Below, one piece after another: positions 11,877 through 12,196 of a stretch of 32,000 nt of DNA. Origin of the DNA: an uncultured archaeon (lineage in GTDB: Archaea > Asgardarchaeota > Thorarchaeia > Thorarchaeales > Thorarchaeaceae); NCBI GenBank assembly GCA_964648855.1, contig CAZYLT010000021.1:1-32000 (forward strand). Direction: 5' to 3'. Numbering within the stretch: position 1 is the first letter of the stretch; every line of letters begins with the position of its first letter. Under the pieces are notes generated by a model. That model was not told where the DNA came from. It searched no databases and saw only the letters and a list, made by a program, of their open reading frames with translations. The translations under genes and the position numbers were made by a program.

Positions 11877-11897
11877 TTTTATGATAGAAGCCTTCCA
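11862..11897 (+). pseudogene. 5' half of a tRNA-Gly(TCC), positions 1-37
   Basis: GCGGCCG TA GTCT AGTTTT ATGAT A GAAGC CTTCCA aligns with the intact tRNA 5' half; homology stops after A37. Confidence 0.85.
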
Positions 11898-12196
11898 CTG
11901 AATTGTCCGTCATAGCGGGGTCTGGGCCCTGACTCAAGCATGACAGAACCCTTCCACTGATACGTCCCTTCTTTCACCTGAAGTTGTCGCAAAGAAGATG
12001 CCACCCTTCCACTAATATGTCGCATTGGAATATCGATTGAGGACTGTTCAATCTATGATCCAGGCCTTCCACCGATATACCCAGAGAGTTCACTCTAGCA
12101 ATATCCTTAAAACAAGTGTTCAGACACCCTTGACTCCAGAGGGACAATCGGGATTTGGGTCGAATCGATATGATCCAACCCTTCCACTGATCGTCC
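11881..12196. repeat. Interspaced repeat array with ~55-60 nt period, consensus ATGAT-N6-CTTCCA-CTGATAYGTCC, hairpin spacers
   Basis: CTTCC cores at 11892, 11951, 12006, 12066, (degenerate ~12129), 12181 and, in register, the tRNA anticodon loop at 12241. Confidence 0.85.

Follow-up and report, generated by a model that had tools for sequence, protein, structure and literature searches.

In the 32,000-nt stretch of contig CAZYLT010000021.1 analysed here (the window, from an uncultured archaeon of the Thorarchaeaceae family), an intact tRNA-Gly(TCC) gene is preceded by five short units, each of which consists of 17 nt corresponding to tRNA positions 21-37 followed by a short motif (Table 1). 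What purpose such an array of partial tRNA copies might serve is the question raised by this locus. A sequence-only reading had described it as a catalogue of tRNA alleles, namely a record of past integrations, a set of guides, or alternative crossover overlaps. We found that the array is part of a known Asgard aCas1-TnpB element, and that the element carries a spare tRNA. Among the three mechanisms offered, a set of guides is the best supported by comparisons of related loci, and the array is probably a multi-guide TnpB array directed against non-self tRNA-Gly(TCC) alleles.

Table 1. Coordinates of the array, the tRNA-Gly copies and the genes of the element within the window
Feature	Position	Strand	Details
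Earlier copy of left junction	5802..6113	+	Worn unit 6013-6028, promoter-like box, tRNA nt 1-16
Promoter-like box and tRNA-Gly 5' fragment	11819..11876	+	Archaeal-type box 11819-11832, nt 1-15 at 11862-11876
Unit 1	11881..11897	-	Stem GAAGC (11887-11891); would act as a guide on the - strand
Repeat motif after each unit, and linkers	11898..12209	.	Logos, linker orthology
Unit 2	11940..11956	-	Stem GAACC, exact match to the allele of the 22144 half
Unit 3	11995..12011	-	Stem CCACC, as in the resident tRNA
Unit 4	12055..12071	-	Stem CAGGC, common natural allele (9/68 genomes)
Promoter-like box of the element tRNA	12098..12111	+	Inside the long linker; putative, judged by likeness
Unit 5	12170..12186	-	Stem CAACC; CGACC in sister arrays
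Intact tRNA-Gly(TCC)	12210..12284	+	Stem CCACC/GGTGG; sole copy in the assembly
TnpB 3' non-coding region, presumed omegaRNA scaffold	12317..12419	-	Conserved; terminates in GTTCACTC (- strand)
TnpB, 564 aa	12420..14114	-	Probable start 14096; RuvC D246, rearranged E407, D441
Intergenic module	14109..14217	.	14-nt TATA-containing stretch 14109-14122, exact copy 14204-14217
aCas1, 1538 aa	14352..18968	+	Cas1-like ~11-238; Cas4/RecB-like PD-(D/E)xK ~256-565
Displaced tRNA-Gly 3' half	18978..19021	+	From nt 32, stem GGCTG; T arm and acceptor degenerate
Displaced tRNA-Gly 3' half	22144..22187	+	Stem GGTTC; outer boundary common to L328

The only genes between the intact tRNA and the displaced 3' half at 18978 are tnpB and aCas1, which are arranged head to head and occur in multiple copies across the family. 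No Y1 or serine TnpA was found between the tRNA and this half, and no family B polymerase gene within the element. The RuvC triad motifs are present in nearly all of 30 TnpB relatives. The large protein, whose named homologues belong to Thorarchaeota, had no match in Pfam or PADLOC. In a structural model of its residues 1-620 (pLDDT 81), residues 11-238 resemble Cas1 and residues 256-565 resemble Cas4/RecB-type nucleases; Cas1 chains occupied ranks 1-11 in a comparison with the former segment (Z 12.5, rmsd 3.8, 177 aligned), and Foldseek also returned Cas1 (prob 0.99, E 4.6e-3). Residues E95, H170 and D180 are invariant among 34 aCas1 sequences. Judged by its predicted fold, a putative Cas1-type integrase is present in the element.

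Asgard loci of this type were described as Cas1H-Asgard-1/-2 (Altae-Tran et al. 2023, PMC10691335, citing Makarova et al. 2020). That study named the GTTCACTC motif, noted the GTTCACTCA motif and suggested that the variable sequence preceding GTTCACTCA may hold a guide; the word 'tRNA' is absent from its main text. The window agrees with these loci in its Thorarchaeota host, a TnpB beside a giant Cas1-domain protein, GTTCACTC downstream of tnpB, multiple copies and mobility, and eight of the nine bases of GTTCACTCA are found downstream of tnpB at 12317-12324 (- strand). It differs in that a tRNA-matching segment lies beyond a further terminal motif and is multiplied into an allele array, and in that the element bears a whole replacement tRNA. 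Three further aCas1-TnpB elements (C28, C19, C4) were found in the genome to which the window belongs (G000); the C28 copy adjoins a tRNA-His gene and has a T-arm-like segment before its end motif.

The array repeat, a motif of about 11 nt of the form C-T-G/A-A-Y..TCC that opens with CTGA, CTAA or CCGA, shares its consensus with the terminal motif found in single-guide relatives, which argues for the guide reading. Among elements not associated with tRNA-Gly, a motif sharing the array-repeat consensus is located 18-26 nt past GTTCACTC, and the bases beyond it match tRNA genes over at least 13 nt in 12 of 28 cases, compared with 2 of 140 controls. These matches involve Asp, Tyr, His, Arg, Thr and other tRNAs, several arms and both polarities, as expected of guides and unlike a fixed protein site or an antisense RNA. 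In most Gly elements, the terminal motif is missing at its usual place and is found at the array instead, with the tRNA and its promoter lying between scaffold and array, suggesting that each unit on the tnpB strand represents the end motif followed by a 17-nt guide. Conservation ahead of 70 units (selected by nt 32-37) is at background over nt 1-20 and rises at nt 21, and the resulting 17-nt segment is close to the ~16-nt guide of ISDra2 TnpB, which cuts 15-21 bp from its motif (Karvelis et al. 2021, PMC8612924).

Other observations count against guides. The scaffold and the array are separated by an antisense tRNA and a promoter, and we found no pairing partner that would explain the loading of distant units. 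Folding of the - strand over 11862-12560 gave no clear signal (z -1.66), and hairpins in the linkers, which vary from 23 to 98 nt, are weak. No target-adjacent motif common to the tRNA targets was found, the targets sharing only a junction-adjacent purine (A in 8/12, G in 4/12). With CRISPR arrays defined by near-identical repeats of at least 25 nt and unrelated spacers of even length, the window array lacks the CRISPR/type V form, having a degenerate ~11-nt repeat, uneven linkers and guides that are variants of one target. A box similar to that of the element tRNA also precedes array-free tRNA-Gly genes; a scan with bacterial promoter and terminator models was uninformative for an archaeal host.

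The same CTGAC motif and a hairpin directly follow the TATA-containing stretch upstream of tnpB (14123-14139). In 19 of 22 elements, the 10-15 nt preceding this copy of the motif recur exactly 94-99 bp away, flanked by AT(T/G)AA, and the two copies covary, matching each other over 12.9 nt and those of other elements over only 2.9 nt. This motif-anchored pair fits the same guide logic; it may include a guide with which the element represses its own tnpB promoter, or else be a promoter duplication that has been maintained.

Four of the five window units are exact natural alleles of the family, and CAACC of unit 5 occurs as a resident allele in none of the family tRNA-Gly(TCC) genes (68 genomes). 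Among related genomes, 48 of 71 units carry a natural anticodon-stem allele (55 after adding two alleles found later), compared with 2% expected for any 5-mer and 8% for a 4-mer plus C. The description of the array as an allele catalogue is thus supported, and it applies generally in the family. The enrichment in natural alleles that was proposed as a check surpasses this simple null but not a pentamer-level column shuffle (48 vs 43, P=0.07), because the allele space is small; exact matches over nt 21-31 number 9 vs 1.7 in column shuffles, and per-position base frequencies of units and natural alleles correlate with r=0.98. Patterns for intronless Ala, Glu, Val and Pro tRNAs, used as controls, recovered few genes, probably because most have introns or a different spacing, and the Val pattern stayed at chance level. 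Scans of viral and metagenome sequences returned mostly chance matches and four relevant contigs.

The listed gene is itself unusually variable. tRNA-Gly(TCC) has 20 anticodon stems in 68 genomes, nearly all perfectly paired and the commonest reaching 19%, whereas tRNA-Gly(GCC) has 5 stems in 54 genomes, one of them in 48. The corresponding stem heterozygosities of 0.91 and 0.21 are consistent with alleles being targeted. Arrays precede 15 of 64 tRNA-Gly(TCC) loci, and 11 of these 15 have a TnpB or a displaced half downstream; most array-free loci lack both TnpB and displaced half. Some arrays have no TnpB nearby, which counts against guides.

The pairings reported for the window are all correct: with GGTTC of the 22144 half, GAACC pairs at 5/5 and GAAGC at 4/5 positions; CCACC pairs 5/5 with GGTGG of the intact tRNA; and CAGGC and CAACC each pair 4/5 with GGCTG of the 18978 half. 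Matches at 4/5 are weak, however, since 46% of units from other genomes lie within one mismatch of a window stem (4.5% are exact), and both GAAGC and CAGGC exist independently as natural alleles (partners GCTTC and GCCTG).

The array can be compared with that of a sister element, L328, which occupies the same chromosomal site, encodes an aCas1 86% identical to that of the window and has a colinear array (GAGGC, GAACC, CCACC, CGGGC, CGAGC, CGACC) with resident allele CAGCC; the G031 element is similar. The GGCTG stem of the 18978 half corresponds to CAGCC, and this half is therefore the sisters' own allele. Slot 1 differs between window and L328 (GAAGC vs GAGGC), slot 2 is identical, and CCACC of unit 3 is an ancestral slot retained in G031 and L328, both with CAGCC resident; CAGGC of unit 4 is the allele displaced in L328 at the same site. 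Orthologous linkers are 0.62-0.79 alike between genera (three slots), compared with 0.22-0.53 within the window array, and pentamers differ in the same slot of orthologous arrays. Judging from this orthology, the array passes as a block between genera and sites, and its pentamers are changed in place. The proposed order, with outer units matching the outer half and inner units the inner one, did not hold: the orthologous inner slots of L328 are CGGGC and CGACC, the self-matching unit is central, and outer-before-inner arises in 1/6 of random orders. The inner units are near misses to the 18978 half, and CAGCC is absent from all three orthologous arrays.

Across the family, 7 of 13 displaced halves have their allele listed in the array, compared with 1 of 19 resident genes (Fisher P=0.003), as guides against non-self alleles would predict; the seven matches compare with 3.7-4.2 expected (P=0.035-0.054), and these P values overstate the significance because the loci are related and Gly arrays accompany more than one TnpB clade. 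Taken by itself, avoidance of self is not significant on the same contig (1 vs 3.1-3.4 expected, P=0.11-0.14), and genome-wide self-matches equal expectation (2 vs 2). Six of the 13 displaced halves have no exact unit, which counts against guides. That the matching unit has no fixed slot is in favour of them. The sole resident match is that of the window, where the slot 3 pentamer is older than the resident allele and the resident G37 (12246), unique to this gene among 68 family genes, forms a mismatch at guide base 1. A self match confined to the window and weakened in this way is compatible with the guide reading, and the suggestion that G37 may provide escape from the element's own guide is post hoc. 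A further point against guides is an exact self unit on another contig in G109, an assembly with 9% contamination.

The joints of the elements, whose ends were mapped approximately (units and displaced halves share 6-9 bases), lie at nt 29-32 on the right and are variable on the left. Orphan promoters with tRNA 5' fragments occur upstream of tRNA-Gly loci, some of them without arrays, a point against guides; the fragments end mostly at nt 14-22, which fits a cut 15-21 bp from the junction. Resident and displaced copies also differ in the acceptor stem (L095, L103), indicating that whole tRNAs were imported; these imports and the retained RuvC residues also favour the guide reading. In the window, the fragment of nt 1-15 is linked to unit 1 via four T. 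The promoter box and this fragment are absent before unit 1 in L328, which has no preceding nt 1-20, and the apparent full 5' half of the window is therefore a joint between the fragment and unit 1. From its composition, the segment at 11819-11876 is a remnant of a broken earlier copy.

The segment at 5802-6113 resembles 11562-11876 at 85-95%, the latter containing a worn unit at 11776-11791. This ~310-bp direct repeat ends at tRNA nt 15-16 and brackets 5.4 kb of cargo encoding a nucleotidyltransferase, a NosD-like protein and a 589-aa orphan. Worn single units are present at 1855, 6013 and 11776. A metallophosphoesterase and SMC-like ATPase pair (Mre11/Rad50-like) occupies 19089-22141 between the two displaced halves; the end of the ATPase gene adjoins the 22144 half, and a similar pair follows aCas1 in L331.

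The main rival to guides is a role as DNA recombination sites, where the units would be attC-like or overlap sites for cassette exchange, or would allow an integrase to choose the overlap fitting its host. In genus g3 and in L253, cassettes of 1-2 kb lie between truncated arrays, and contigs from the source habitat, which may belong to other organisms, have joints that skip whole units; together these indicate that the repeats also recombine. The 11+6+11 spacing of the units, which resembles that of dif-type sites, also counts in favour. Recombination between repeats is expected in any array, however, and a site-specific protein would have no need for a hypervariable stem. The units are without dyad symmetry, unrelated tRNA segments precede the same motif elsewhere, and no match to the tyrosine recombinase family PF00589 was found in the 94.6% complete G000 assembly, while 14 of 14 control genomes were positive. 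We consider such sites an unlikely explanation of the array; the crossover overlaps proposed earlier may be a secondary use, given the cassettes of a single genus, but no tyrosine integrase was found in G000.

Also unlikely is a passive record, in which the units would be left joints of past insertions at nt 37/38, stacked by nesting and trimmed by deletions. Each unit is indeed the tRNA sequence up to nt 37 joined to the element-end motif, displaced halves start with the same six bases as the units, and nesting is seen directly where a 3' half is followed by an older scaffold (L091, L104, L094). The matching unit often takes the innermost position or the one next to it, and the 60-nt period equals 23 + 37 nt. 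Against this, nt 1-20 are at background in 70 units that retain nt 21-37, and natural alleles would not be expected to persist in neutral scars. The linker orthology with other pentamers in the same slot, and the chimeric nature of the supposed full 5' half, also oppose it. Of the record of past integrations first proposed, a strict local version with nested insertions is thus not supported for an array inherited as a block.

It is very improbable that the array gives rise to plus-strand RNAs, whether as guides of the box C/D or TIGR kind (ATGAT...CTGA around ~12 nt) or as decoys made of tRNA fragments and transcribed together with the tRNA: C- and D-like boxes do lie 12 nt apart and promoters are directed through the array toward the tRNA, but such a guide would be tRNA-sense, other elements show both polarities, no Nop-domain match was found among the window proteins, and the box C/D or TIGR interpretation was rejected on the grounds that the C box is tRNA nt 21-25 and varies accordingly (AGGAT, AAGAT, ATGAC) and that an Rfam search gave no match.

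Under the guide reading, the element would be specialised on tRNA-Gly(TCC), and the array would form the end of its TnpB guide RNA, bearing several guides. Along the tnpB strand, every unit would provide a short copy of the element-end motif and then a 17-nt guide to nt 37 to 21 of one tRNA allele. Once transcribed and loaded, these guides would direct TnpB to cut tRNA-Gly genes of listed alleles near nt 16-23, and the break would be filled by the element, either through repair or through integration by aCas1 that places the right joint at nt 29-32. The element would provide a tRNA of an unlisted allele, allowing both host and element to survive. Hosts and rival elements could escape by changes on both strands of the anticodon stem that keep the tRNA functional; such changes would produce the hypervariable stem, and arrays would follow through in-place pentamer changes. 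The guides probably first arose, in the manner of ordinary TnpB, from flanking sequence where the element ends at nt 37/38, and an array of that origin would record the alleles of the population rather than the nesting order of the chromosome.

More tentatively, and as a proposal that we hold to be possible rather than probable, the locus may represent a natural allele-replacement drive with a proto-CRISPR array, in which TnpB would cut rivals, the Cas1-type protein would install the element with its immune tRNA and update the array, and the conflict would diversify the tRNA-Gly(TCC) stem of Thorarchaeota. The guide reading itself would give the Asgard aCas1-TnpB elements a concrete guide position, targets and a life cycle. 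The array, beside a Cas1 homologue, would be a possible extant halfway stage between a TnpB with one flank-derived guide and a CRISPR array. The reading would also offer a testable reason for the compensatory changes that make an essential tRNA hypervariable (20 stems among 68 genomes, compared with one dominant stem in the isoacceptor).

Several known systems share parts of this organisation. TnpB of the IS200/IS605 family (OMEGA), whose homing is reviewed in PMC13565253, likewise combines an RNA end motif with ~16 nt matching the uninterrupted target, a RuvC nuclease and a presumed cut-and-copy gain; in contrast, the present element has no TnpA, has several guides without a clear target-adjacent motif, and would target the allelic forms of an essential gene. 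Casposons (Beguin et al. 2016, PMC5137440) also use a Cas1-type integrase and insert at tRNA genes, whereas the present element lacks a polymerase gene and includes TnpB, its tRNA target is divided at the anticodon arm and replaced, and neither a 15-bp duplication nor terminal inverted repeats were found. CAST homing guides and omegaRNA-like arrays (PMC11656645; PMC10691335) are similar in that short element-borne guides address conserved host sites such as tRNA genes, and arrays derive from duplicated RNA ends; here, however, Tn7 genes are absent, the nuclease looks active from its residues, and instead of unrelated spacers the guides are variant forms of a single 17-nt target. Literature searches on TnpB of Thorarchaeota and on multi-guide tRNA arrays, covering few subscription journals, returned no papers.

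Other tRNA-Gly loci show related arrangements. Stacked TnpB copies or remnants, representing nested insertions in the same tRNA, occur in L106 (G006), in L328 at 14513-15343 and in L091 after the 3' half. In L107, L150 and L263, small inserts at tRNA-Gly contain an array and a spare tRNA, together with a displaced half that one of the units matches; neither TnpB nor aCas1 was found within the L107 and L150 inserts, and all three are probable non-autonomous copies. The tRNA-Gly(GCC) gene of G000 has an intron at 37/38, which is the position of the guide junction; introns may conceivably offer a route of escape. The resident tRNA-Gly of L154 (G077) has a mismatched stem (CCGGC vs GCCTG), a hybrid of two alleles. 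Finally, in L135-L138 (G010, G033, G009, G023), the D loop of the tRNA-Gly(TCC) gene is interrupted by an insertion around nt 15/16, not far from where cutting is predicted.
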